Source of the DNA: Folioceros fuciformis
Taxonomy: Eukaryota
Direction: 5' to 3'
Assembly (NCBI GenBank): GCA_049999805.1
Contig: JBNGIO010005982.1
Location: 20,500 to 54,763, forward strand
DNA length: 34,264 nt
The notes under the pieces are model-generated. The model worked only from the letters and a program-made list of their open reading frames with translations. It was not told the DNA's origin and made no database searches. Within the stretch, counting starts at the first letter, position 1. Every line of letters starts with the position of its first letter. This document shows, in pieces, positions 443-33,207 of the stretch. The translations under genes and the position numbers were made by a program.

Positions 443-2074
443 TTAGTTTACTTTGCGTGCCATAGCTCGCATTTGTGTCATGGGATCGTCAAAGTGGACC
501 TTCTTCAGTCTGTATGCTTCCATGTCCTCAGCAGTGACCTCGTCATTGTGGGTCACATTATACTTCCTCTTCCTCTCATCCTTTTCTTCTTTTAACCTGT
601 CATCCTCCTTCTTCAATGCATCCTTCAGCTTTTTCCTGTCGAGAGGCAGATCATCTGGCACATCTGTGCCCCATGATGCTAGGTTCTTTTCCTCTTTCGC
701 CACAGGCTTCTCCTGAACAGCCTCTTTGCGGGCAATGTTAGTTCGCATCAATTCGGCTGAAGCCTCTGCAGCTTCAATTCCTGCCTGTCCAGTACAGTAG
801 CTGTTCCGAAGAAACTGCTTACAACACTTGTAGCCCCACTGATTTTCTTTCCACCATGAACCCCAGACTGTGGTGTGGTTATTGATGAACACATCCTCTT
901 CGTACTTGCTCTTGGGTACAGCTTTCTCCTGACCCTTGACGATGCGACCTGCTCTATCGTACTCTATCTGCATCTCTGTCTGTCCCAGCAATAGCTCCAT
1001 GGGAGGTTTCTCCTGCGAGGCTGCGTTACCATACTTATCCATGATGTCGTCCTTGACCCTGGATTTCAGTTTCTCTTTCTTGATCTTGAATTCCCTATGG
1101 AGCAACTCTGCCTGAGACGGCGCCGCTTGCAAATGGATATCCTGCCCTTTCTCGTATGCCTCCCAGGCATGGATGTTGAGCTGCTTAAATTCCTGGGCCT
1201 GCCCGCTGATCCTGTTCTGGTTGTCTCCAGCGTAGAACTTCTCATTGGGATCACTGTCCGGCAATGGATCCTCCCTCATGGATCGGGTCTTCGGGTCATA
1301 GTGAGCCGAATTGGTATCAAGATTGAGGAGGTACTTAGCAGTGTCCTCCCGAATCCTAAGATTACGCACAGTTCCAGTGCTCCCTCCTCCAGTCGTCCGC
1401 ACACGCTTCTCCACCTTGGCAAAATCCATCTGCTCGCTTTCATCCACCTTGGCCTCGTCCACTTCCAGATCCTCGTCCTCTTCCTCGTCATCATCAGTGT
1501 CCTTCCCTTCCTGCTCCCCCACGCTCTTCTTGTCCGCCAGCTTCTTCAGCTGCTGTTCCTTCTGATACTTCCTCCTAGCCTCTTCCTTCATCTCATACGA
1601 GTCTATGACCCTAGCGTACGTCCCGGAATCGTATCCATTCCAGCGATCCCGCTTCCCGTCATAATCCAACTCAAAGGACTCCACCTTCTCATCGGGGGCA
1701 ATATACTTGTTAGTCCACTTGGCGCCGAACTTACGGGGCCTTTCCATACACATCTTGGACTCATGAGTCATGGCTCCACAATTTGCGCACGCCCCTTTCC
1801 TGTATTTGCTAGCCTGGAAAATCTTGGCACCTCGGTCATACCAGTCCTTGGTGTAATTCGGGTCCGACTTCCACTTCTTCTGATGCTTCAAACTTGGTTT
1901 CTCGGAATTGAGATACCAGGGCGCAGAGGACATGTACTGCGGAATGTGGGGATTGATCTCCTTGCCATCTTCATCGACCTCGGCTGGGGCAAGCCCAGCT
2001 TTCCGAGCCTCCTCTAACTCTAACTGCTTCCTGTGATCCTCCCTGGACTTGAACGCCGCCGATGCGGTCGCCAT
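443..2074 (-). CDS. SLU7: Pre-mRNA splicing factor SLU7 (SMP1/2-like), single exon, 543 aa
   Basis: Continuous ORF from ATG at 2074 (the track extends it to a TTG at 2086). Hallmark motifs: EINPHIPQYMSSAPWY, zinc knuckle CANCGAMTHESKMC, LDYDGKRDRWNGYD, VRNLRIREDTAKYLLNLD, VWGSWW...WGYKCC. Confidence 0.96.
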   Translation of the reverse strand: MATASAAFKSREDHRKQLELEEARKAGLAPAEVDEDGKEINPHIPQYMSSAPWYLNSEKPSLKHQKKWKSDPNYTKDWYDRGAKIFQASKYRKGACANCGAMTHESKMCMERPRKFGAKWTNKYIAPDEKVESFELDYDGKRDRWNGYDSGTYARVIDSYEMKEEARRKYQKEQQLKKLADKKSVGEQEGKDTDDDEEEDEDLEVDEAKVDESEQMDFAKVEKRVRTTGGGSTGTVRNLRIREDTAKYLLNLDTNSAHYDPKTRSMREDPLPDSDPNEKFYAGDNQNRISGQAQEFKQLNIHAWEAYEKGQDIHLQAAPSQAELLHREFKIKKEKLKSRVKDDIMDKYGNAASQEKPPMELLLGQTEMQIEYDRAGRIVKGQEKAVPKSKYEEDVFINNHTTVWGSWWKENQWGYKCCKQFLRNSYCTGQAGIEAAEASAELMRTNIARKEAVQEKPVAKEEKNLASWGTDVPDDLPLDRKKLKDALKKEDDRLKEEKDERKRKYNVTHNDEVTAEDMEAYRLKKVHFDDPMTQMRAMARKVN

Positions 2075-2291
2075 GCCTGCTCGCAAGCTCCCTCACCTTT
2101 CACCAATCCACTACCGGCCTAAAATCCTCTCATCAACGTTTTGTTTTGAAGTACCCCTTATAGTTCTACGGTACTCTCGAGCTCAGCGCAAGAGGGCCGA
2201 AGAGGAACGAGAGCAAGTGGCCCAAAAACAAAAGACCTAATAACCGAACTCGAGCCTAGAGAGCTAGCCTCTACAAGGTCTTATCACAATT

Positions 2292-17698: not shown

Positions 17699-18295
17699 GC
17701 TCCCAGAGGAGCCGTTCCCGCTCAGGACCTGGAAGCGTGTTTTGTGACGAGCGTTAGCGGCCTGTTGTGCATATATGTATGTAGTAGTCTCATGAGTGTC
17801 TCTGCTCCCTACTGGTCGCGATTGTTTGAACTCTGGACCTTGTGTACAGCGTATTCCATGCCCCGTTTATGTGGCCCTGCTTTAATGCAGTATTATTATC
17901 CCCGCGGCCTATCCATCTCCAATGAGTAGTAGTCAGCCATTCTCGGCGGGAAGCTGACAGCCTTACTGGCGGCCATTCGTGCGGAGCAAGTGCCTCGGCC
18001 ATTGTCGCGGACTGAACGTATGGCAAAGCATCCACTAACATGGTCCCGGATCGGGACTCGGGAGCTCCAAAGTAGACGTTATGGGTTTTCACGGGCGGGA
18101 TAGCGGGCATATGAAGGGCGATAGGTCTGGGGTTGGGAGACGACGTATGGGTGGCTCTGCCCGTGTGGGCTGCGCTAGTCTGTTTTGCTGGCTTCCCTTC
18201 TCTTGTACTCGCAATCGCTGAGGTGGTCAACGACAGTTGCAGACAGATTATGGCAGCTCGGGAATTGGCCAATCCATTATGGGTCGGGGGTTCGC

Positions 18296-18833
18296 AAGGG
18301 TTAGGGTTTGGTAGTGTTTTCGATGGTGTTTCAGATGCAGGGGTTAGGGTTTTGTAGTGTTTCAGATGCAGGGGTTAGGGTTTGATAGTGTTTCACATGC
18401 AGGGGTTAGGGTTTGGTAGTGTTTCACATGCAGGGTTAGGATTTGGTAGTGTTTCACATGCAGGGTTAAGATTTGGTAGTGTTTCAAATACAGGGGTTAG
18501 GGTTTGGTAGTGTTTCAAATGCAGGGGTTAGGGTTTGGTAGTGTTTCAAATGCAAGGGTTAGGGTTTGATAGTGTTTCAAATGCAGGGGTTAGGGTTTGG
18601 TAGTGTTTCAAATGCAAGGGGTTAGGGTTTGGTAGTGTTTCAAATGTAGGGGTTAGGGTTTGGTAGTGTTTCAAATGCAAGGGGTTAGGGTTTGGTAGTG
18701 TTTCAAATGCAGGGGTTAGGGTTTGGTAGTGTTTCAAATGCAAGGCTTAGGGTTTGGTAGTGTTTCAATGCAGGGGTTAGGGTTTGGTAGTGTTTCAAAT
18801 GCAGAGGTTAGAGTTTGGTAGTGTTTTAAATGC
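18296..18833. repeat. ~31-bp minisatellite (~17 copies) containing a telomere-like GGGTTAGGGTTT core
   Basis: Unit tgcaggggttagggtttggtagtgtttcaaa repeated with 1-nt indels. Confidence 0.93.
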
Positions 18834-18857
18834 ACCGATTAACACCGCCATGAGGGG

Positions 18858-19000
18858 TCATTTACGGTTTTGGGTTTAGGTCTAGTCCATGATGCGCACA
18901 TCCCCCTCATTTACAGTTTTGGGTTTAGGTCTAGTCCATGATGTGCACATCCTCCTCATTTACGCTTTTGGGTTTAGGTCTAGTCCATGATGTGCACATC
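18858..19000. repeat. 49-bp tandem repeat (3 copies) containing GGGTTTAGG
   Basis: tcatttac..ttttgggtttaggtctagtccatgatg(c/t)gcacatc at 18858, 18907 and 18956. Confidence 0.9.
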
Positions 19001-19200: not shown

Positions 19201-19382
19201 GGGGATATGTTCAGTGCCTTAGGGGCATGTGTGTTGTGGGGTGAGACNNNNNNNNNNGGGTGAGACCCTATGTAGCTTTGCTGTGAAATAAATAGCTCTC
19301 ACAGAGGAGAGGGGATATGTTCAGTGCCTTAGGGGCGTGTGTGTTGTGGGGTGAGACCCATATAGCTTTGCTGTGAAATAAA
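19201..19382. repeat. Direct repeat (2 copies, starts ~110 bp apart), first copy interrupted by a 10-N gap
   Basis: ggggatatgttcagtgccttagggg...ggggtgagaccc...tagctttgctgtgaaataaa at 19201 and 19311. Confidence 0.75.
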
Positions 19383-19771: not shown

Positions 19772-20238
19772 NNNNNNNNNNNNNNNNNNNNNNNNNNNNN
19801 NNNNNNNNNNNNNNNNNNNNNNNNNNNNNNNNNNNNNNNNNNNNNNNNNNNNNNNNNNNNNNNNNNNNNNNTTGTGAGTGGAGAGAGACGCATCCAAAAG
19901 TTTGGACCATATACGACCGTACAAAACTTTGCGTGAAAGCCAGCCTAACCGTATCGGTGTTCCATAAGCCATAGATATATACATACATATATAAGTCTGG
20001 GTTAGGGATGGGAATAGTTGAAATATTTTATATTAAATAAATACATAACTATAAATATTACTTGGATTAATAATTAGATGGGATGCTTGAAGGGAAAGGG
20101 AAGGGGAAGCATAGTGTCGGCTTGGTGCCAGTACTTTGACAAGGAGTATGCCGTGGTACAAGATGGGTTCGATTTGTCTTTTGTGGACTTCAATCAAATC
20201 CTCCTTCTATTGCAATAAGCTTCTCTAGTATTCTTCAC

Positions 20239-21302
20239 GGCTAGCCATAAAAATCAGGTGGCCAGGTTTGGGCCCCACTGATCTGTCACTGTTCTTATAC
20301 GAGTGTGCTTGCAAAGGTTGCCACATAACATGTGACCATCATACATACACCATATACAGTATAGGCTTGACCGGCTACCGGTTGTGTCTGCCACCGGGTT
20401 GTAAGAATATGGTTTAGGTACTAAAACCCTCATTTCAAATCGTGGTTTGCTTACACTACGGTGCACGAAATTGGCGCCAAATTCGTGCTCCTTCGATGGA
20501 CAACGGTGATCCTAGCTAACCTCGCTTACCACCAAATGATGCGCCCCGTACTACTTACTACCAAATAATCGTATAATACCTGTCATGGATTTTGACTTGC
20601 CAAGGGATTGTCCATTCTCGATAGAAGTACCATGTCCTAGTTCATTTCGAGAATGGCAGCTCACTTGGCAAAAGTTGCTGTACAAACATTCTTTAGCTCT
20701 AGAACGCATAAAGGAGGCTAGAATCGCCCATATTCCTTGGGAAAGAGTGCAAGATTTTGTGGCAGGAATGGATAGCCAGCATGAAGCACCGAAAAATTTT
20801 ACTCGTGTTTGGACAAAAAGGCCTAGCCAATTACCACAACCAAGCCAGCCAAAAATAGATTCTCCGATCACTGTAGTCAGGTACATTGGTTTCAAATTGC
20901 TTCTTTCAATTTGTTTTCAAATGTCACATGATGCTGTCACAACCTCACTTTTCATAGTGGTAGAGTTTGCTCCACTACACTTTATTCTTATCAAATCATA
21001 TACCAAACTGTTTGCCTTAGTGAGCCGAATCTAACCATATGGTATGTGTCCAATGTTGAGCACATTTGAGTAGAATGCTGCAAGAAAAGGTTTTCTTCAC
21101 ATCCTGACTTTGGGTGTTCAATTCTTTGTCCAGCCTTCACTAATTGTTGCATGCTATATACCATTCTGTTTCGCTCACCAACACAAACAGAATGACTTGT
21201 TTTTTGTGCATTTTGGAGCACATTTGAGTACGCTGCAGCAAGAAAAGGTTTTCTTCATATCCTGAATTTGGGTGTTCAGTTCTTTCTCCAATCTTCACTA
21301 AT
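20239..21302 (+). mobile_element. 5' part of a Mutator-like (MULE) element: putative TIR, first coding exon (20585-20880) and intronic ~170-bp repeats; interrupted by a copia LTR
   Basis: The 45 bp at 20239 match 30355 at 41/45 positions (start GGCTAGCC). The exon peptide LTWQK...RIAHIPWERVQDFVAG...PKNF resembles, from memory, the N-terminus of plant SWIM/MULE-derived proteins (At4g13970 type, RLALIPYTRVDDFVRG). GT donor at 20881. Confidence 0.65.
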
Positions 21303-21813
21303 TGTAAGTAGACAGCCTACCCCATTGCCATAGGTGGGGTGTCTGCTGTATAAGTACCTTCCCTACCTACGTAGGTGTCTTCCCTTTTCCTCACGTAGGT
21401 ACTCTCTCTACGTATCTAGGTAGACATCCTACTACATAGGTATCTTCTTATCCTAACCTACTAGAATAGAACTAAAAAAATCCATAAAAACCTTCACCAG
21501 CTGCTCACTACCTACCATGGGCACTTGCCCAGAAACCTACCTTCCACATGCCCCCCTTCGAACTGTTCTGAACAATATCTAGGTTAGGGCACTATTCATT
21601 AGGGCGCCTCACTTAAACATTATTATATATCTAGGGCATTAAGTAGTTACTTAATTAGTTTCTCTAGGTAGTTAGTTGTTATATTAATTACAACCAACTA
21701 ACAGTTATAACAACTTATGGTTATAACTACCTAACCACCTAACCACCTTGCTTATAAATAGGCTTTGTACTTTCTATTATATATTGTAATAGAGCTTAGC
21801 ATGATTTTCATCA
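21303..21813 (+). mobile_element. 5' LTR of a Ty1/copia retrotransposon
   Basis: Begins TGTAAG exactly where the MULE-associated repeat breaks off; TATAAATAGG near 21753; ends ...CA immediately before the PBS. Confidence 0.8.
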
Positions 21814-21824: not shown

Positions 21825-22636
21825 TAGCTTTGCTCTTGATGCTAGAACTACTTTCCTATTTCCTCCTAAGGCATTCATTCTCCTATGCTTCCTTTCCAAT
21901 TAGATTTTTAAATGGAACTTCTATGCGCTGGAGATCTCGCTTTTGGCAGCTCCATGATGTTTTTGGCAGCAAATGGATCAAATTGTACATCCTTAAAGCA
22001 TCATGCTTTAAGGATGCACAATTTGTGCATCAAATCCTTGCCCTTGCACCATGGATTCTCCAAATCCCATTAAACAAGGAGTTTGGAGAAATATCAACGC
22101 TGCAAGGCAAGAGAAGCGAGAGAAGGACCACAAAAACAACAAAGTGCATGGCTGTGAAGAGCTTGAAGACGTCTCTAAACAAGTTGCTAATTTCATTGGA
22201 TCTATTTTGATTAAGTCACCAGATCAAGGAAATTTAATTAGACTTACTAGACGAGATCTACTTACCTCTTTTGATTTGTTGCAAGTTTGTGCAATCCAAT
22301 TAGCTCTTCAACATATTCCTAACTTGGTTGCTGGCCCTTCATTTCCCGGCTTGAAACTCTTGGTTGCATAAAGAGTAACATTAGACTTACCTAAAAATCC
22401 AATCATTCTAATTTTGCCTTTTTGCAACAAGAAATTAGCAATATTCGGGATCATCTAGATAGGCTTCTTCCCAAAGGAGATTCTGATTTTGATGATAAGA
22501 TAGATACTCCAGTAAATATAGCTGGCCAAGCCGAGATGATCTGCTCCAAATACGCATGTCCTTTCTCCGCTCGCGGTGATCGGAAATCAAGTGCGCCTAT
22601 CGGACAAATTAATCATCTATTTTGAACTCACTTGCG

Positions 22637-23911
22637 ATGACTGGAGTAAATGTTGACGACTCCGATATTAATCAACTTGAAAAAGTTAAAAAGCAGTGGC
22701 TAGAGGAGCCGAAGGCCAAATGGCTTGATGAGAAGAAGAGTTGGGAAGCCGAAAAGGCTAAAGAGAAAGAAAAATTCAAACATGATCCAAAGACGTCAAC
22801 AACAGTGGTTCATGAAGATAGCTTTAAGGAGAAGGATAGATTCAATGGAAAAGGATATGATGTATGGAGTATTCGCATGCAAGGAGTATTGCGGCAGCAT
22901 GAACTATGGGATATAGTGAGTGGTTCCAATGATCGTCCCATGTGGGGATTCGACTCTATAGAAGCATGGGACAATAAGGATCAGAAGGCCCAAGATATTC
23001 TAGTGAGTGGACTTACTGAATCCATGGTTCGCTAAGTTTTTGAAGTCTATTCCTCCAAGGACATGTGGGACCACCTTGCCCAGTTATATTCATCTAAGGA
23101 TGTAATGAGCTTGTTGTCTGCTACCCGCAATTTTCATAATCTCAAGATGAGAGAGAATGACTCCATTGATAATCATATCAGCATTTTTCGAATCGCCAAG
23201 TCCAACCTTGAAGCAGCATCCGGCACCAAGTTGACCGAACAATCCTGTTTTATGACTCTTCTCGCCTCTCTACCACCCTCCTACATGGCTTTTGTGACTA
23301 CTCAAAATGCAGTTCTCCGAGCTGCTCAGAAAAATCATGAAGCCTTTGGTGATGCCAACTTGGATTTAAGCGTCACCGAATTGATTGGAGCAATCATACA
23401 GGAGGACCAAAGTCGTCGACATGAATCCATATCAACTAGACAGCAGCTGATGTTCACTGGATGAGGTAGAGGAAGAGGTCGAGGCCGAGGTCGCGGCAGA
23501 GGACTTGTTTCTTCACGACTCAATTCCAACCAATATTCACAAGGCGGTGAATCCTCGTCTTCTTCAGCACCTGCAAGAGGTAATAAGAAGACTAGAGTTA
23601 TTTGTAATTGGTGCAGAATTCCGAATCATATGGAGAAGAATTACAAGAAAAAGAAGAACGGCGAGCCTAGGAAGAAGGCTGCCTCTGGAGCACATGTTGT
23701 AGTGAAGAAACAATCTTCCACAACATCGGCAGCTCTCACTGTCTGCATGGCATCATCAAAGCCATCAAACCAATATTGGTATTTGGACAGTGGAGCTACA
23801 TCACATATCTGTCACAACAAAAACTCTTTTGAGTCTTATTCGCCAGCCACAGGACACCAGACTGTGTGACTGGGCGATGATCACAACCTCCCCATCTTTG
23901 GTGTAGGTTCA
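22637..23911 (+). pseudogene. Ty1/copia gag-protease, truncated, with in-frame stops
   Basis: One frame: RFNGKGYDVWSIRMQGVLRQHELWDIV (gag N-terminus), UBN2-like LLASLPPSY, an RG tract, degenerate zinc knuckle CNWC-x4-H-x4-Y (23603-23644) and protease WYLDSGATSHIC (23777-23812). Stops at 23033, 23462 and 23867. No integrase or RT present. Confidence 0.9.
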
Positions 23912-24279
23912 TGTGGAGGCAAAACCCGGGGCACTGATTGCCAACGGGTTCCACCTTTAGTGGCCACACTTATCCCACTGTCGTTGAGACATTGGGTTTC
24001 GTTCCCACGAAGGAGCAATGGGGTTCCTTGCTGCTGTGGATGGAGGGTCGGACTTGATCAACTCGATGATGGATTCAAGGGCTCCTCTCCAGCTCCGATC
24101 AGGCGTAGGACAGGCCTCGCTGTCTGGCGGTCAGCTGCACCTCTCTCGGTGCCCACAAACTCACTTCAATCACTACAACGACCCTAACCTCTCAGATCTG
24201 CGACTTCCCTCACACACTTCACTCACTCTCTCACTCCAGCACCAACACTAGCAACTACCAGCAACCAGCAACGGCACCA
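23912..24279. mobile_element. Possible LTR-like segment (TG...CA, 368 bp) joining copia pol to the transposase remnant
   Basis: Copia homology stops right before TGTGG at 23912, and transposase homology resumes right after CA at 24279. No TSD. Confidence 0.3.
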
Positions 24280-25007
24280 TATGATCTTGAACTGGTTTTG
24301 AAAAGATATATTATGCAGCAGATGAACCGCTGCAACATTCTGATACCCTGCTTTCCCATACAGTACAGGCCACACAAGCTTTCTAAAGTCCGGCACCTCT
24401 TTCACCTCATGAATGTCTGGCATGGGGGTATACGCATTCTGCATGACCGTAATAAGGTTTGGTGAAGTCAAAGCTTCCTTCCGACTGAGTGGCGTTGAAA
24501 AGCTGGGAAACATGTGATCTACTTGGTCGTGCATATTGCCCACTAATAAGAACCCCACTTTTATCTTCACAAAAACCCGGTTTTCCACTAACATATTCAA
24601 ATAAGGAAAAAACAACGCGTTTTTGTTTTCTTGTGCAGTGTTGTCTAGCTGCAAGTATAGAACTCTAGGTAGCAGGCTGTCGTACTTGTATATCACGCGC
24701 TGAATAATTGATATTGTTAGGTTTGCATCGTTTTGAATGTTCCCAAACTCGGTGAAGAGCTTGGGTATCATAGTCTTGTTGTATATCATACACCCTACCA
24801 CAAGCACATCAAAGAGGCCAACATCCACCAAATCTTTTGGTACTTGAACGAAATGGGGCAGCTGAGTCTTTTGTTGATTTATTCCATCCACTGATATCCC
24901 AATGTACTTCCCGGGGTCGCCATAACATTTGACCCGATGTTTGATACTCTTCTCGTGCTCTGCTTTCAATCTATGTTGATGTATCTTCAGGTCAGATTCG
25001 AAGCCCT
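24280..25007 (-). pseudogene. DDD transposase catalytic exon, Sola-like (DUF7869-type), copy 1
   Basis: SVDGINQQKTQLPHF, DANLTI, LPRVLYLQLDNTAQENKN and FLLVGNMHDQVDHMF match the DGMDQ / LQLDN-x2-ENKN / VGHTH-x-D-x-D pattern. AG acceptor at 25008-25010. Superfamily assignment is recalled, not searched. Confidence 0.8.
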
Positions 25008-25067
25008 CTACAAAAAACGCATGGAACTTCAAATCAGAATAAGAAGAAATATGCACTAATGGTGGGC

Positions 25068-25345
25068 GTGCGCCGGTCTAACGGCGCACACCTACTTGCA
25101 GAAAAATGGCCCGAGTGCGCCGGAAGACCGGCTCATTCCGACCATTTTTCTGTAATGCGTTATACATTACGGAAGGGGTGCACCAGTAGACCAGCGCACT
25201 CCGGCCATTTTTCTGTAATGCGATATACATTACGGAAGGGGTGTGCCGGTAGACCTGCGCACTCCGGCCATTTTTTCGTAATGCGATATACATTATGGAA
25301 GGGGTGCGCTGGTAGACCGGCACACTCCGGCTATTTTTCTGTAAT
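25068..25345. repeat. 63-bp tandem repeat (~3.7 units), each with two hairpins, in a chimeric intron
   Basis: Units start at about 25116, 25179, 25242 and 25305. Consensus GTGCGCCGG-taga-CCGGCGCAC plus TTCTGTAATG-cgatata-CATTACGGAA. A single copy of the first hairpin lies at 25068. Confidence 0.9.
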
Positions 25346-25444
25346 TAGAAGTGATTTTTCCCTTACGTAGGCTGGAGTGACATAGTTCCTAATTTGTGAT
25401 TTTGCTTTTTGTGTGGTTCTTCTGAACAAAATGCTTTTTGGTAG

Positions 25445-26200
25445 AAACCAGCAAACACCATAGACCTTGAAGCATTGTCGAAGCCTTTTCAAGATTATGT
25501 TTATTCTGCTAGAAAGTGGAAGCGCAAGGAAGAAGAAAAGCAGAGACTCGCAAATGCAGATATGGATGCAGGATTATCAGAGTTCAGAGTCCGAAATAGT
25601 AACAATAAGACCAAGTATCAAGTTATCCATCGAAACGTTCTGGAGATGAAAGCATTTCTAGTAAAACGGCCGTATACTCTCTTATTTGCAGATTTGCCTC
25701 GGGAACTGCAACGACATGAATATGACAGGCAGCTGACAAGCGAAGAGCTTGAGGACATGATTCGAGGGTTTTCAGAATGCACCAGCAGTAATGTGTATAG
25801 GGTGGTTCTTATGCATGACGTGGATCGGATTACATAGGCTAGGGAAGCACTTCGGCCATGGTGCAAGAAGGGAACCATTCAGACCTTAGTGTGCGAGAAG
25901 ACTAACATACCTCCCAATGCAGGCGCAGTAGAGCCTGTTGAGTATTTAACTGTTGGAAGTGCAGTTCACTCTGAAGCTCATGACACAAAAGCTTCATTAT
26001 TCGCGAATCAGGGATTCCTTCTTCTGAGAGTTATAAGGCATGGTGCTGTGGTGAAGAAACATATGTTCCACTCGGCAGATTCTCTAGACGTTTCGCCGTA
26101 TCAAAAGCCCCTTGGTTTAATGGGTATGTTGGTGAATATGTTCTCCGCTGAAGGGGATTGGGTAGTGGATGCTTGTGCAGGATCGGGGTCATTTCTATAG
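25445..26200 (+). pseudogene. Beta-class amino-DNA methyltransferase (N4-cytosine/N6-adenine, N6_N4_Mtase-like) exon with one internal stop
   Basis: The frame is continuous from a phase-0 AG acceptor (25443-25444) across a TAG at 25835. YQVIHRNVLEM...YTLLFADLP corresponds to IHGD...DLIFADPPY (motif IV). PYQKPLGLMGMLVNMFSAEGDWVVDACAGSGS corresponds to HPTQKP...GD-x-VLDPFxGSG (motifs X/I). The motif order is that of the beta class. Confidence 0.8.
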
Positions 26201-26213
26201 TCTTCGATTCAAA

Positions 26214-27300
26214 CCATGGCTTGCCTTGCATTTCACTGGTTTTAAGTACACCCCATTTGAAGAAGGAGTAGATGCCTCCTTTCACTTTCTTTTTCTTTTC
26301 TTTCTCATCCTTGCTACCACATGTTTTGCTTGCTTTGGAAGTTCTAAGGCTTCCCACTTCAAAAATATCTTATTCACATTTTCCCACTCTCTCCCCTCCA
26401 CCTTTGCCATACAAAATATATGTGTCCTATTGTCAACCTCATGCCGCTTATATTGCTCATCTTCCTGACCCTCATTGTCTTCTATCAACCCTAAGACCTT
26501 GTAGAGATTGAACTTCCAATTCATACTTATGGTCACACCATCTCGCTTCACTATTTGAAGTTTATCCGTAAGTATCAAACTTTCTTTTTAAATAAAGCTC
26601 ATCCTTTTCCACTTACCGGACATTATGTTGTGGTCTATAGTGAGAACTCACATCTCATGTTAATCCACAATCCACATGTGCCTTCATTCATTGGTACTTT
26701 GCTTTTGACGGTGCTATGTTCGCCAAATGCAGGGTAACTTGGAAAATATGATTGCCACCTACTAGCTCCATGACATACTTCTTTGCCTGAAACTTTGCCA
26801 TGTCTAACTTCAAGATGTCATTTGTAGTCATTGGGGTCGATCATGCACAACAAGGGCATAACACCTTCTTCCATCCTCCCCTTTGCAATTACTCTTGCAA
26901 GATACCTTGCCCATGCTTCGTCCACCTTTCTTATTTGTGCATCACCAGTAAAGAATCACGCTTGCCGCAAATTTTCTAGCTTTACAAGCATTAGTCTCTG
27001 GCTGCACCTTCTTGTTTGAGCTTTACAAGCACCATCTTTGACTGCACCTTCTTGTTGTAGGGTGACTCGTGGATGCTCTGAACTTCATCCTCATCGTGGA
27101 AGGAATCCTTGATTCTCTCTTTGTCTATGGTCACATGCAACATTGACATGTCATTGCTATGTCGGGCATGCACGCCCCGCTTTCTCTTCTTCCTCGTCAT
27201 ATCGCTCCCCATGTCCAAAATTCCTTGGCCAGACACTGGCACTCCCTCGAGATATGTCCAAAATTCCTTGGCTGACAATGTCACTACCTCGAGCTGTTTC
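26214..27300 (-). pseudogene. Degenerate ParB-like domain gene fragment (stops and frameshifts)
   Basis: Manual minus-strand translation: QIRKVDEAWARYLARVI...MPLLCMIDP...KYVMELVGGNH (GGNH at 26748-26759)...AHVDCGLT...DHNIMSGKWKRMSFI...FCMAKVEGREWENVNKIFLKW...MQGKPW (26214-26231). The R-x2-D...(V/I)(D/G)GNH pattern is ParB/Srx-like. Confidence 0.6.
26978..27057. repeat. ~41-bp imperfect tandem duplication
   Basis: agctttacaagca...ctgcaccttcttgtt at 26978 and 27019. Confidence 0.75.
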
Positions 27301-27934
27301 CGTTTCTTGACTTGTCATTACCAACACCCACTTAGTTTGCTTTGTTTAGAACTTTGGCTATGGATAATAATAATTTATGCAGGAATGCGCGGATTCCACG
27401 GTGCGTCTCCCGCCTGATTCCCGTTGTCGTTGGTATAGTGCTATGTTGGACATCGCCCGCCACGAACATCTCGGTTGTAGTGCCCTCTAGGTTTGTCTTT
27501 GCTCGACGTGAGCTGCACATTATTCCTTCGAAGGTTTATTGTAGTCCGCTAAAAACAAATACCCAGCAAGAAAGACATAGCCCTTGCCTCTGATTCCTTG
27601 CAGGGAAGTACTGCACGAATACTGTTTGCCGTGATGCCCTAGACAAGGGTACAGTCCACAGTAAAAAGCATCAGACAGCAGCAGGTGACAAGGAAAAGAG
27701 CTTCAGGAACAAAGGCGCAGCTCTCTTTGAAGAATCAACGCACAAGTTCTTAGGCCAGTCGTTCACACAAGGAGGACGGCTGTACTGCTTTATGTACATT
27801 CCTGCGATAGTGCTTTCCTTCCACTGTTGACTTGTGGAACCTGATCGTACTTTCAAAGTAGACATGACACAATGGTCTTATTCCCCTGACGAGGATCCAC
27901 AAAAAATTGCCCTTTACCACTAGGAAATGCTGAT

Positions 27935-30216
27935 TTATGACCGCCTCCTTCGAATTCTCAAAGGCAGTCCCTCAGCAGGTTTTGGCAACAGCCAATCCAC
28001 TTTTTTCGGAACCAGTGCGAGCTCTATTGTTGGCTCAAATCTGCTCAGCACAGGCATGAACGTGACGAAAGCCTGGTCAGCCTGGGAGGTGAACCTGGAT
28101 TGCAACCAACAAACGTCCAGCCGCCAGATTTTGACCAGACCAGGTATGCCCACTTACTCATAAGACTGAATGAAACGATGCAGAAACACCAAAATGTCCA
28201 GCTTGCCCAACTCACTACCCGGGCATACTCTGTAACCATTTCCGAAAGGTGTGTACGTATTGGTCTTCGGCGCCGTCTGCATCCATAAACCCCACATGAT
28301 GGTTTTCCGAGCTCAGAATACCAATCTGTGTTCTCTGAAATTGTGCCTAGCTATGGTAACCACACGGTTGATCTTACCTTGAACCGGTCCGGATCAAATC
28401 TGTAAGGATCCGGGAAGAGCTTGGAGTCGAGATGGACAGACCGGAACCAGGTAATTACTGTCCACCCTTTTGGGAAAAAGATTCCTGCAAAATCCATCCA
28501 CTCTCCGTCACCTTCCCAACGATAAATACTTAGTTGTAGGATTGCACAAGACGGACAGGTAACAGGTTGAGGGCTTAGAGCTGGACGACGTACCTTTGTA
28601 AACCACATCCTGGATTGCCTCCCTCAGAGCAAATGGAGCAACGTTAGCTAGTCTCAAGCTCTCGTCAAGTACCTGCGAACGCGCCACATGTTGTGATGCG
28701 GGTCATGAGCCCTCAAAGGATCCCGCGCCCTCAGTTTTGTGACTTACACGCCGGGTCACGGGCAGCTGCTGTAGGTCATCCCAGGTGATAGGATCATCTT
28801 TGCATGTGCGCCTTCCCGCAACCGCGTCATTCTCGGCCTACAGGATCCAAAGAGAAAATGCAGCTTGGATGTGACAAATAAAATACCAGTACCTTACAAA
28901 AGGGAACAGTTGTGAGACTTCAAAGGATCGGATTTGCGTGCCTTGACTGCCTGGAAGATGTCTGGATGTAGACAAAGATTGTTTAACACCCAACATAGAG
29001 ATGTTGCCGTGGTGTCGTAACCAGCGAACATGACAAAGATGATGTTGTCTGTAATCTGGTGGTTCTTGAGGTCCTCCAATTTAAGAAAAGAAGCAATCAG
29101 GTCCTCGTGGTGTGCTGATGACGTTGCCGCCCGTCGTCCTTCAATCACATCGTTCAACAAGCTGACAATTTGTTGCCGTGCCTGCGAATCCAAGGCAGAA
29201 ACCTTAAGGATGGCACGGTAATGGCAACGAATTCCGCACGTTAAGCAAGCGGAAGGTGGGGATGCATGTAGAACGTACTTCCATAGCCCGTTTGTACGGC
29301 GTCCCTGGTATGCTGAGAGGGAGGGCGGTGGTCACACCTTTCTCCAGCACAGAGACGCTCTCACGCAGCTTCTCCACGACAGCTCTGTCTGTCAGACTGT
29401 CGCAGATGAACTGCAGGGCTACGTCAAAGGAGAACTGCGCAAGCCAGAACAAATTCCGCATCAGCTTGCTCTGACCGGTGGCAAATCAAATCCGCACCCC
29501 TCTTCCATCACCCCACTGCGATTTACCAAGTACCCTTTTGGCCTCGTCGAAAAGCTTGATCACCACGGACGAAGACGGATCCCATTCCAAAGGCACCATC
29601 GACTGCAAGCAGCCTTGCGCGGTTCTGTCGATCCTGGGAGTGAATCGTCTGAGAGCCTCGGGAGTGAGAGGCGCCAGCACCAGCCTCCGGTACAGCGAGT
29701 GCGCCTCCCCCTCCATCTGGAAGATACCGTGCTTCCCAAACATGTCGGAGGGCGGCCGCCTGTCATAAGCTCCTTTGAACAGCTTGGGAGACTGAGTCAC
29801 GAATTTGATTGTCTCCGGCTCTGTGACGCACACGGTAGGTTTGCCAAGCAAGTGCGTTCGGAAAACAGGCCCGTACCTGTGCAGATTCAGATTCAGGATC
29901 AGGCGCAGCCTAGCGCTGCTGAAATTGCAGGCCAATGAACTTCAAGTGCGCACCCCCCGAACCCGGCTGCAACAACGTATCACCGCTTAATGCGTGGAAG
30001 CAAGAAAGCTTCTGGAGAGGGGGCGGTCAGCAACTGGATGCTCTCGCCCGCCAGAGGCAGCTGCCAGAATCTGCCGCGCACTTCCGCCCCTTTCCTGCTG
30101 GCTGCCGAGCACAGAGCCTGCGAATACAGGAAAATGCAGGCCAGCAAAATGGGGGCAGCCCCCAAGGACACAGCCACCCACACATCAGCGGCCCAACTCC
30201 AGCCCATCCCCTCCAT
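27935..30216 (-). CDS. Cytochrome P450, CYP85 clan, most similar in motifs to CYP707A (ABA 8'-hydroxylase-like); 9 exons
   Basis: N-terminal TM segment; LPLAGES; YGPVFRTHLLGKPTV; I-helix FAGYDTT; ExxR (DESLR); FDPDRF; heme motif PFGNGYRVCPG (~28220-28252); C-terminal PKPAEGLPLRI. Introns are GT-AG. Start could be 30216, 30228 or 30252. Exact family not established. Confidence 0.9.
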
Positions 30217-30354
30217 CGCCCGGCTCATCTCACCGCATCTAGCCCTACACATAAGCCCAAGCAACCAGTCCTCTAACAAGCACCCAGTTGCTGATGCCCG
30301 CGTACAGTGAAGAGAATGAGCAATCGGAAAATGCCAAGCTTCATTGTGAAGAAT

Positions 30355-31752
30355 GGCTAGCCGTAAAAATCAGATGGCCAGGTCTGGGCCCCACCGATCC
30401 ACTCGTGCAGCTGTGCCATGCTTCATGTATGACATCCCATGGCTTGTGCATACGGATACGGTTAGCATGATACGGTTAGCATCTACGTATGGTTTTGCAT
30501 GGCACCGGCAACCGGTGAAATAAAGCGGCACCGGCAAGCCGTGGGTTATCGCCGCGAAAAACGGGCTGCCAATGCAGATCACTAGCGAACTATTGTCCTT
30601 GTTCTACAGCGAACACTATTACACTACACACAATAAACGTATACGAATACGCATACGTCTTCAAAAACACTTTCTTCAAAAACACATGCGCCTCCCCGGA
30701 ACTAAGTCCCGCTTTTCTTCTTCCATGGGCAGAACCAAGTATGCTTCTCGGTCAGAGATAGGCAAGTGTGTGTCTGCGTTCGTGAGCATAGAATGTTTGC
30801 CATGGATTTGCCATTGCAGTCTGGAGCCCCATGGATTTGAAATTGCAGGCGTCTAAACGCTATGGATTTATAGGCTGCAGGAATCTAAGGCCCATGGATT
30901 GGAAGGCTGCAGGAGCCTGAGCTCCATGGATGTGAAGGCTGCAAGTAAGAAGGTCATGGAGGTAACAAGGCACTATATTGAATGGAAACTAAATCCACAA
31001 AGCAAGAAAAACATGGAAGCCAAGGTACTCCAAGAAAAACCATGGCGTGCAACCCTGCCATTGTCATGGAAAACAAGGCATGTAATCATCTATCATTGGC
31101 CTCTATGCATTCTCTTTGTCATTTCCTACATTCCAAGTGATTTTCTTCCTTTTTTCCCCTGGGAGGAGAAAAGAGAGGTCTCAACCTAGCTGGATTGCTT
31201 GGTCCTTCAATTGGTATAAAAGGTTGTAATGACCTACATTCTGGCTGTCCGCCAGTGTCTTGCATTTGGTCTATGAGCTGCTTCACAGCCAACAAAGTAT
31301 TATGCACAAGGGCATCAGCATGCAATAATTAATGGAGATTGGAGAAAGAACTGAACACCCAAAGTGAGGATGTGAAGAAAACCTTGCATTGCACCTTCCT
31401 GATCACATTTCCTGATCACATGTACTCCAAAACGCACACAAAACACATCATTTTGTTTGCCTTGCTAAGGCAAACAGAATGGTATATAGCATGCAACAAT
31501 TAGTGAAGACTGGAGAAAGAACTAAACACCCAAAGTCAAGATGTGAAGAAACCCTTGCATTTACAACATCCTTATCAAATGTGCTCCAAAACGCATACAC
31601 AACATATTATTCTGTTTGCCTTGCTGAGCCAAACAAAATGGTGTACAGCATGCAACAATTAGTGAAGACTGGAGAAAGAATTGAACACCCAAAGTCAGGA
31701 TGTGAAGAAAATCTTTTTTTGCAGCAGTCTGCTCAAATGTGCTCCAAATGCA
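30355..31752 (-). mobile_element. Second MULE-like fragment: TIR-like end, internal gene remnants and ~2.5 copies of the ~170-bp repeat, inverted relative to 21050-21302
   Basis: 30355-30399 matches 20239-20283 at 41/45. 31327-31752 is the reverse complement of the repeat at 21050-21302; both translate to MVYSMQQLVK.G.RIEHPKSGCEENLFLQ. Confidence 0.6.
30940..31052 (+). pseudogene. Short fragment of the linker region of the ParB-like gene family
   Basis: KKVMEVTRHYIEWKLNPQSKKNMEAKVLQEKPWRA parallels ENVNKIFLKWEALELPKQ...MQGKPW (26.2-26.4 kb) and MQGRPWRA (32838). Confidence 0.45.
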
Positions 31753-31772
31753 CAAGTAGGAAGCGCTCATAC

Positions 31773-32715
31773 TGTTCCACTAACATATTCAAATAAGAAA
31801 AAAGCAACTCGTTTTTGTCCTTTTGTGCAGTGTTGTCTAGTTGCAAGTATAGAACTCCAGGTAGCAGGCCGTCGTACTCGTGTATCACGCGCTGAATAAT
31901 TGTTATTGTTAGGTTCGCATCGTTTTGAATGTTCCTGTGAGTTGACATGGATGCTATATAGACATATGCGCCAATGTTGTCAAAAAGCAAAGATTAAATA
32001 ATTAAACACATCGTGGCCTTATATACAAAATTGTAAGAGTCACGTCTATTCATAAGACCTAAGAGTCTAAAATAGCTAACAGTAAGTACGTTTATTATTA
32101 CTATAAACCTATCGAGAGGTTTATATCCAAACAGTTCCCAAACTCGATGAAGAGCTTGGGTGTCATAGTCTTGTTGTGTATCATACACCCTACCACATGC
32201 ACATCAAGGAGGCTGACATCTGCCAAATCTTTTGGTACTCGAACAAAATGGAGCACCTGAGTCTTTTGTTGATCCATTCCATCCAATGATATCCCAATGT
32301 ACTTCCCAGGGTTGCCATAACATTTGAGCAATGTTTTATACTCTTCTCACGCTCTGCTTTCAATCTATGTCAATGTACCTTCAAGTCAGATTCAAATCCC
32401 TCTACAAAAAACACATGGAACCTCAAATCGGAATAAGAAGAAATACGCACTAATGGTGGGTATGCGCCGATCTACCGGCGCACTCATATCATACCCAGAT
32501 GATAAAGTGCGCCGGTCAACCAACGCACTTATAACGCAAGGAGGAAAGGAACTGCGCTGATCGATCGGCGCACTTGAAATGCCCACAACAAACACAATTT
32601 TAAAACACTCTTACGTACCTTGTTTCTTCTTATCAGGCTCAGATCGTATGTTCCTTTTCAGGTAGTCGCGGGTACTACATAACGAAAACCTATTGGTCTT
32701 CGGAATTCGCACTTT
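31773..32715 (-). pseudogene. Sola-like DDD transposase, copy 2 (two exons, split by a solo LTR)
   Basis: Upstream exon ~32715-32619 KVRIPKTNRFSLCSTRDYLK...KKQ, GT-AG phase-1 intron 32618-32402, then SLDGMDQQKTQV...LYLQLDNTAQKDKN. Nucleotide paralogue of ~24580-25090. Confidence 0.85.
31936..32133 (-). mobile_element. 198-bp solo LTR with perfect 5-bp TSD (GTTCC)
   Basis: TGT...ACA termini; GTTCC at 31931-31935 and 32134-32138. The paralogous empty site in copy 1 (ttttgaatgttcccaaactc, 24731-24750) has a single GTTCC. TATATAAGG lies on the minus strand. Confidence 0.9.
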
Positions 32716-33110
32716 GAGTAGGAGTAGGAAGCTCTAGGATAAAGAAACGTGCAAAAGCCAAGAGGAAACCTGGGGAAGCTGAACTCGCTTCCAGTAGTGC
32801 GCAAATGTCAGATGAGTCATCGAAGAAGGTTGCAGCAATGCAAGGAAGGCCTTGGAGGGCTTTTCAAGGAGTCCCAGCAGGGGTTAAAGGTGAGAAAATA
32901 CTAATAGCTGTGACGCAAAAGGTCATCTAAGGCAAGCTGCACCTGAAAGACATGGACATAGAGGTAGGGAAGAAGAAAAAGATACATTTGATACAACATG
33001 CTTTCAGGATGGCTTTGAAGTGTGCAACATTTGAGGAAGTGGAAGGCTTGTATCCTAAGCACATGGAAGACTTACATCTACTCAAGTTCCAAACTGCCTT
33101 CACACAAGTG
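32716..33110 (+). pseudogene. Middle exon fragment of the putative ParB-methyltransferase gene, back-to-back with transposase copy 2
   Basis: One frame with one stop: ...KKVAAMQGRPWRAFQGVP...VTQKVI*GKLHLKDMDIEVGKKKKIHLIQHAF...YPKH...FQTAFTQV. It is followed by a phase-0 GT donor at 33111 and an intron containing TGCGCCGGTCTACCGGCGCA (~33163). Confidence 0.55.
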
Positions 33111-33207
33111 GTACGCTTGCTTTTTCAGAGCCTTTAGATGTTTTTGAGCATACTGGTTGGATTGCGCCGGTCTACCGGCGCACTTCTTGAGAAAATATGG
33201 AAATTGG

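Follow-up and report, generated by a model that had tools for sequence, protein, structure and literature searches.

The question raised by this locus is whether coding fragments that lie scattered on both strands of a 34,264-nucleotide stretch of Folioceros fuciformis DNA (contig JBNGIO010005982.1; hereafter the window, meaning the whole stretch that was analysed) derive from a single protein in which a ParB-like domain is joined to a DNA methyltransferase (MTase), and, if they do, whether such a protein is still encoded here. A first-pass annotation, made from the sequence alone, had assembled four such fragments into one chain. We find that three of them, here called pieces A, B and C, match one ancestral protein, that the fourth, piece D, lacks support as a part of it, and that no single gene at this locus contains them all. 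The reading that we favor, to which we assign a probability of roughly 0.78, is that A, B and C are pseudogene remnants of at least three copies of a transposon-carried ParB-MTase gene situated beside DUF7869.

Piece A (25445-26200, forward strand) is an MTase exon remnant, which runs from before motif IV through motif I and was recognized by Pfam, by a profile hidden Markov model (HMM) of its family and by tblastn. Its match to the Pfam family PF01555 (N6_N4_Mtase; E 3.3e-5, 24.4 bits) falls short of the gathering score of 26.7, and the family to which it belongs is small: a phmmer search among 1.84 billion representative sequences detected 29 relatives at E≤1e-3, of which 7 reach E≤1e-10, whereas E≤1e-30 is reached by none. 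All 29 map back on piece A in tblastn. PF01555 was found in each of 10 of these relatives that were scanned (E≤0.01), above the gathering score in 8; the highest score seen among family members is 68.9 bits. The 15-member family HMM aligns to the window copy in two blocks, with positions 488-609 on 25478-25828 (E 1.5e-7) and positions 617-729 on 25850-26191 (E 1.5e-14). Piece A is nevertheless broken. Its 251 codons include one in-frame stop, a TAG at 25835-25837 in the place of a conserved valine of the family alignment, and the tryptophan of the W.K.N block has become a cysteine. Motif I is present (CAGSGS, CAGSGSFL), and the frame ends two residues beyond it; the relatives continue, and the last third of the MTase domain is missing from piece A. 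Because other genomic copies read on past 26184 (...SGSFLQAAIQ, at a loose contig end), piece A is seen to be truncated here. Motif IV, which precedes motif I, reads ADLPRE rather than (D/S)PP(Y/F/W/H), and in the closest relatives, P0003 and P0004, it is DLPRG.

Piece B (32718-33110, forward strand) comprises a basic linker, the motif MQGRPW and a helical region, and ends at a GT dinucleotide (33111-33112) that is in phase 0 of the frame beginning at 32931. Its family membership was established by the family HMM (positions 425-485 on 32934-33116, E 1.5e-6), by BLASTP and by tblastn, in which residues 371-457 of P0051 (E 2.2e-8), 92-178 of P0053 (E 3.2e-8) and 310-344 of P0015 all map on it. 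It too carries one stop, a TAA at 32928-32930, among its 131 codons.

The relatives allow the fragments to be placed within one chain. Those that could be named come from Chara braunii, Ginkgo biloba and Riccia sorocarpa, and the remainder are Logan, JGI or ENA entries. A search with the 789-residue protein P0018 returned 15 proteins, the query among them, of which 12 are Chara paralogues; the Ginkgo protein P0015 retrieved 5 Ginkgo proteins, itself included. Many gene models of the family are truncated or internally deleted; full-length relatives that display the entire architecture in one chain were found in Chara, in Ginkgo and in metagenomes. In such members (P0018, P0050 and P0037) the N-terminal domain shows, in order, ..DP.., GG.HS.EAR, YxGLT and (D/E)HN; it is followed by a W..IF..WE helix, a basic run, PW and a helical region, and the chain closes with an MTase domain marked by D[FIV]P[YH]G, PYQKP and SGSGT. 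This is the very order (ParB-like, DHN, basic/PW linker, helical domain, MTase) that the first-pass annotation had pieced together. That annotation would have been refuted had no single locus contained both its GGNH domain and the MTase domain; single relatives with the GG.H box and the MTase domain exist.

The same annotation had placed a phase-0 donor at 33111 and a phase-0 acceptor at 25445, and had proposed a join between the two. Both sites are where it put them, the acceptor being an AG at 25443-25444 directly before the open reading frame (ORF) that starts at 25445, and the relatives bear out the proposed join. In tblastn, residues 395-479 of P0018 lie on 32847-33116 (piece B, E 2e-5) and residues 491-731 on 25499-26191 (piece A); in BLASTP, residues 92-178 of the Ginkgo protein P0053 align to piece B through its last residue (E 2e-11), and residues 201-259 align to residues 26-85 of piece A (E 2e-4). 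From the P0053 alignments it follows that the end of B and the start of A are contiguous in one protein, to within about three residues. The tiling of P0053, P0018 and the family profile therefore identifies 33110|25445, as judged from these alignments, as a place where two exons of the ancestral gene were truly joined.

Piece C (26214-26940, reverse strand) supplies the N-terminal part of the chain and was detected by a chain of HMM matches and by tblastn. Read in its own direction it consists of ...MPLLCMIDPN, a frameshift, KKYVMELVGGNHIFQ, CGLT, QHN, EWENVNKIFLKWE, a run of lysines and MQGKPW. Upstream of MQGKPW, the segment KKYVMELVGGNHIFQ (26688-26840, reverse strand) corresponds in the family profile to the block GGGHSREAR. 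One HMM match places profile positions 146-180 on 26940-26827 and another places positions 182-226 on 26825-26691; the two are adjacent both in the profile and in the DNA, in different frames. The collinear chain that they form scores 10.0 bits, against a maximum of 6.8 among 306 controls (140 other 1.2-kb windows of real sequence and 166 windows of reversed sequence), none of which reaches 10.0. Residues 1105-1176 of P0020 align in tblastn to 26834-26619, the GGNH part of the piece (E 7.5e-4). Decay is far advanced: about 11 stops fall in one frame of about 240 codons, there is at least one frameshift, and the box reads GGNHIFQVT, in which the conserved E, A and R of GG.HS.EAR are all gone. 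Upstream of it on the same strand an open 107-residue frame with a basic run (26941-27314) could be a putative N-terminal extension of piece C; compared with the family profile it gave no match (score -0.8). Taken together, pieces A, B and C are, by sequence comparison, homologous to and collinear with single relative proteins.

The fold of the N-terminal domain was examined in a relative, P0049, rather than in the window copy, by means of an AlphaFold2 model built from a 15-row alignment and confident over residues ~190-430. A Foldseek search of the PDB with this model gave 13 matches at E≤1e-3, the best 11 of which are all ParB or Noc proteins (7e-6 to 3.8e-4, with 7bnr_A at the head at 7e-6), followed by KorB, sulfiredoxin and PadC. 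The model thus supports a ParB/Srx fold for the N-terminal domain of the family, as the first-pass annotation had suspected for the window fragment. One family member also touches the ParB-related family DUF6551 (E 0.019). The GG.HS.EAR box of the family, in which E297 and R299 are invariant across the alignment, would correspond to the conserved, arginine-bearing nucleotide-binding box of the ParB/Srx fold, a motif of the GxxR type.

As to the MTase, comparison of the family profile with solved enzymes ranks DpnA (5hek_A, E 3.3e-9) and CcrM (6pbd_A, 9.6e-7) before the N4-cytosine enzymes (1e-3 or weaker), and by this criterion of sequence the family is nearest to the N6-adenine enzymes of the beta class. 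Like DpnA, CcrM, M.MboIIA and M.RsrI, its members have motif IV before motif I, and a motif IV that begins with D. In contrast to the DPPY of these enzymes, that motif appears as D[FIV]P[YH]G in Chara, Ginkgo and Riccia, with the first proline lost, and as DLPR in the window. The ancestral protein would most likely have begun with a domain of the ParB/Srx fold, continued through a PW-bearing basic linker and a helical region, and ended in an MTase of the beta class that resembles the N6-adenine enzymes.

What had tied the fragments together at the outset was the motif (M/L)Q(G/E)(K/R)PW, whose three occurrences, MQGKPW at 26214-26231 (reverse), LQEKPW at 31028-31045 (forward) and MQGRPW at 32838-32855 (forward), are all found as described. 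Three instances compare with a mean of 0.002 per window in block shuffles, only 1 of 500 of which had one or more, a contrast to be read with the motif having been defined after the fact. The occurrence at 31028-31045, piece D, is confirmed as a motif; homology of its surroundings to the family is unsupported, with an HMM score of -2.9 and no BLASTP alignment to piece B at E≤100, and so is the claim that it forms part of the protein. It is possible, though we would sooner doubt it, that D is a true remnant of a fourth copy of the gene, eroded beyond recognition except for the motif. The rarity of the motif, the PWRA that D has in common with piece B, and its position in repeat-level DNA adjoining the repeat array of a second element would fit such an origin. 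Against it, apart from the failure of both comparisons, stand the widening of the motif definition by which D was taken in, and its setting in a run of short repeats of ~30 nt, each of which contains CCATGG and can thereby generate PW codons.

A further candidate, 30315-30419 (6.8 bits, E 0.09), was discarded as an extra fragment, since it straddles the edge of a dispersed repeat. The repeat in question is a 45-nt segment common to 20239-20283 and 30355-30399, with 91% identity and unrelated flanks; because numerous contigs assembled from the plant's sequencing data start or stop at 30355, the segment is likely to be the end of a small dispersed repeat.

That pieces A, B and C match one protein does not make them one gene in the window. 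On the strand that they share, the acceptor precedes the donor by 7.7 kb, the ParB-like piece is on the other strand, and all three pieces carry stops or are truncated; on these counts the first-pass assembly does not survive as a gene of this locus. That donor (33111) and acceptor (25445) agree in phase, and that the residues which they join are contiguous in the relatives, might still suggest one live gene, its order scrambled by misassembly or its parts joined by trans-splicing or back-splicing. We regard this as highly improbable in view of the in-frame stops of A and B, the ~11 stops of C and the end of A before the last third of its domain. Moreover, pieces A and C meet tail to tail (26200/26214), and a 377-nt contig without differences spans that junction, although its sample may be the assembly's own source. 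The great difference in decay, with ~11 stops in C and one each in A and B, speaks against a live gene as well, and leads us to ascribe A, B and C to different copies or ages. An inversion within one gene copy was likewise rejected as the main account of the A/C junction, C being far more decayed than A. No functional protein arises from A, B and C at this locus.

Sequencing data of the same organism place the pieces in repetitive DNA. Contigs of two DNA runs from one sample, X1 (1273 records) and X2 (1072 records), were placed on the window at ≥80% likeness. Their summed depth, which is a sum over contigs and not a copy number, and which comes from a sample that may be the source of the assembly itself, amounts to 150-600 over 24501-26306 and 30220-33200, to 24-29 over 26307-26908, and, for the unique stretch 26909-30219, to some 11 (X1) and 7 (X2). 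Pieces A and B stand at 15-55 times the depth of neighboring unique DNA in the two runs. A second copy of 26514-26919, ~85% identical, also exists. In other copies seen in X1 and X2, only 5 letters stand between position 32485 and position 25344, such that the end of a DUF7869 gene leads directly into the DNA that precedes the MTase exon. In a third run, X3, which we guess to be RNA, there are no contigs on A, B or C and the cytochrome P450 gene of the window is spliced; no inference on expression is drawn for the pieces.

The DUF7869 genes provide the context for these observations. Divergent from piece A lies an open DUF7869 ORF of 284 residues (24223-25077, reverse; PF25273, E 2e-39), and divergent from piece B a second, broken copy (31733-32483, reverse), in which PF25273 is matched on 31733-31993 (E 4.6e-13). 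The two copies are related at the DNA level, 24583-24743 resembling 31775-31935 at 92% and 24739-25089 resembling 32134-32483 at 89%. In the ESM Atlas the clusters nearest to the intact ORF are DUF7869 families from several animal phyla, and the clusters are eukaryote-wide; the protein is a putative transposase. Beside this ORF, the interval 24200-24500 shows an extreme summed depth (~22,000 in X1), numerous contigs have loose ends at 24257-24282, and the ORF seems to have lost its 3' end there to a repeat of very high abundance.

Between each DUF7869 copy and its MTase-family neighbor lie near-perfect palindromes of 22 bp, GTGCGCCGG-TNNA-CCGGCGCAC, with 9-nt arms and a 4-nt spacer. A pattern search found 8 in the window and none in 100 shuffles, and each of the 8 lies either in the interval that separates DUF7869 from A or B, or shortly past B. 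Five occupy 25068-25325, between the DUF7869 ORF and piece A, four of them inside a 63-bp tandem repeat (25115-25345) revealed by self-match; two, at 32462-32528, separate piece B from the second DUF7869 copy; and one, with 1 mismatch, lies at 33162-33183, 51 nt past the GT that ends piece B. They are possible candidates for binding sites of the ParB type or for recombination hot spots. The breakpoints between element variants, 32485 and 25344, are at or near such palindromes. A second palindrome, GTTTGCCTT-GCT-AAGGCAAAC, is contained in an array of ~160-170-bp repeats (31316-31755) that adjoins the second DUF7869 copy; an inverted relative of this array, with 77-89% identity, is present at 20998-21305.

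This arrangement also bears on whether the family is an ordinary one of the host, expanded by duplication in Chara, Ginkgo and Folioceros, with pseudogenes that merely happen to neighbor DUF7869 repeats of unrelated origin. The members in Chara and Ginkgo are indeed annotated as ordinary genes, no terminal inverted repeats (TIRs) or target-site duplications (TSDs) were found here, and a fused transposon domain was seen in 0 of 10 family proteins in each of two Pfam scans. Yet A and B stand on the same side of DUF7869, in the same relative orientation and with the same palindromes in between, the joint between the DUF7869 end and the sequence upstream of the MTase exon recurs in other genomic copies, the depth over A and B is that of a repeat, and many family models are truncated or internally deleted. 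We consequently judge the host-family explanation improbable, and prefer to see in A, B and C the remains of an accessory gene that was carried by a transposon.

Several results nevertheless weigh against this preference. Besides the nature of the depth values noted above, no TIRs or TSDs could be defined, so that the boundaries of the element and its mobility are putative, and no intact copy of the gene was seen in F. fuciformis. Taken singly, the two HMM matches of piece C are weak, with E-values of 0.35 and 0.68 across all ORFs of the window, and Pfam ParBc is matched by none of 12 family members at E≤5. A search for longer proteins containing piece B gave none at E≤0.01, which is itself weak evidence, and two metagenome scans, one for the contigs of P0018 and one for the family alignment, matched patterns from which no relative was confirmed. 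The DUF7869 ORF has no match among PDB sequences at E≤10, and literature searches brought up no paper that names DUF7869 and nothing that ties it to a transposon superfamily via Sola1.

With these reservations, a history of the locus can be proposed. The gene would most likely have been an accessory gene of a DNA transposon, divergent from DUF7869 and separated from it by the palindrome array. Pieces A and B would represent two differently deleted, ~90% identical copies of one such element, the form with A having lost the whole segment from the palindromes to the intron that precedes the MTase exon. Piece C would be a remnant of far greater age, inverted and low in copy number, whose position against the truncated end of A is fortuitous. 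In intact relatives the ParB-like domain may bind the palindromes of its own element, and the MTase may mark the DNA nearby. Mobility, deletion history and this mechanism are what we infer from the layout of the broken copies and from the relatives.

A more far-reaching proposal, which at present we think rather unlikely to hold in full, is that DUF7869 transposons of streptophytes (Chara, bryophytes, Ginkgo) carry a self-marking module, hitherto undescribed for them, in which ParB binds the GTGCGCCGG-N4-CCGGCGCAC palindromes arrayed in a divergent promoter region between the two genes, a fused D.PY MTase deposits N6-methyladenine or N4-methylcytosine, and the palindromes double as recombination hot spots. 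If it were true, a ParB-guided epigenetic mark would become testable in land plants, and recombination at the palindromes would yield deletion derivatives of the kind seen here. Through intact members of the family, a transposon of the plant lineage may direct methylation of adenine or N4-cytosine to itself, with the palindrome arrays as putative binding sites.

Genes of comparable design are known from other lineages. Accessory genes of transposons that combine ParB and MTase domains have already been described in green, red and brown algae, and the present family is a new streptophyte member of this class, represented here by pseudogenes only; a published description of it in Chara, bryophytes or Ginkgo was not encountered in literature searches, supplements aside. 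The logic is that of the cargo of algal giant transposons. As described, Sola1-1_Ec32 of Ectocarpus encodes a 1104-residue protein with a ParB-like and a DNA MTase domain on the strand opposite to its transposase (PMC12477816). Judged by that description, the two systems agree in uniting ParB-like and N4C/N6A-type (N4-cytosine/N6-adenine) MTase domains in one protein, in being multi-copy, and in a proposed role of binding and marking the element's own DNA. Carriage by a transposon, on the strand opposite to the transposase, may be a further likeness: here A and B are each divergent from a copy of DUF7869, a putative transposase. The two systems differ in that the brown-algal protein is 1104 residues long and the window copies are dead fragments, and the likeness is one of description rather than of sequence.

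In red algae, Plavaka elements (EnSpm/CACTA) are reported to carry PAG2, an N6-adenine MTase with a SET domain, and PAG3, a ParB with a 2-oxoglutarate oxygenase, and the Bostrychia preprint places arrays of inverted repeats next to the ParB-bearing Plavaka gene (10.1101/2025.02.11.637652). Going by that account, these share with the present case a transposon cargo of ParB and DNA-modifying domains, arrays of inverted repeats and mostly degenerate copies; unlike here, ParB and MTase reside in separate proteins with other partner domains, and the transposon superfamily and host lineage differ.

Fusions of the ParB-CTPase fold with N6_N4_Mtase are stated to be enriched in phages (PMC12704722), and phage and prophage proteins of this type appear to follow the same two-domain logic with the same Pfam MTase family. 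No phage protein was seen to align to P0018 over both of its domains: of the 301 phage records that match it, none covers ≥80% of the query, and the best 12 cover only residues 534-788, at 24-29% identity. Beyond the two domains of the phage fusions, the eukaryotic proteins possess a basic linker, a PW motif and a helical region; their genes have introns, and in their counterpart of DPPY the first proline is gone.

A last comparison is with MpDN4MT1a/b, the N4-cytosine MTases of Marchantia sperm, which are reported as host genes with a shown function (10.1101/2021.02.12.428880). They resemble the present family as prokaryote-like MTases of the beta class in a non-seed land plant. As an identity for the family they were rejected, however, since they carry TSPPY and the available text of that report makes no mention of ParB; they cluster with the N4-cytosine enzymes.

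For the annotation of the window, the outcome is that this part of it consists of transposon debris around an apparently expressed P450 gene, and that no ParB-methyltransferase gene should be entered. The cytochrome P450 gene (Pfam p450; 27743-30310, reverse strand) lies between the transposon fragments. Because an X3 contig covers separate blocks of it (28940-29180, 29278-29434, 29534-29874 and 29982-30310) with zero differences, the gene appears to be spliced and expressed, given that X3 is, as guessed, an RNA run.

The remainder of the window holds an unbroken 549-residue frame at 443-2092 (reverse strand) that matches the pre-mRNA splicing factor Slu7 in Pfam (E 4e-95), and a gag region of the Copia type at 22613-23869 (forward strand) with DUF4219, Retrotran_gag_2 and Pol_BBD, where in-frame stops separate three ORFs. 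Three runs of N mark assembly gaps at 2305-2404, 19248-19257 and 19772-19871. A long G-rich tandem repeat region occupies 18250-19000, with a GC skew of +0.40 and a periodicity of ~31 nt in self-matches.

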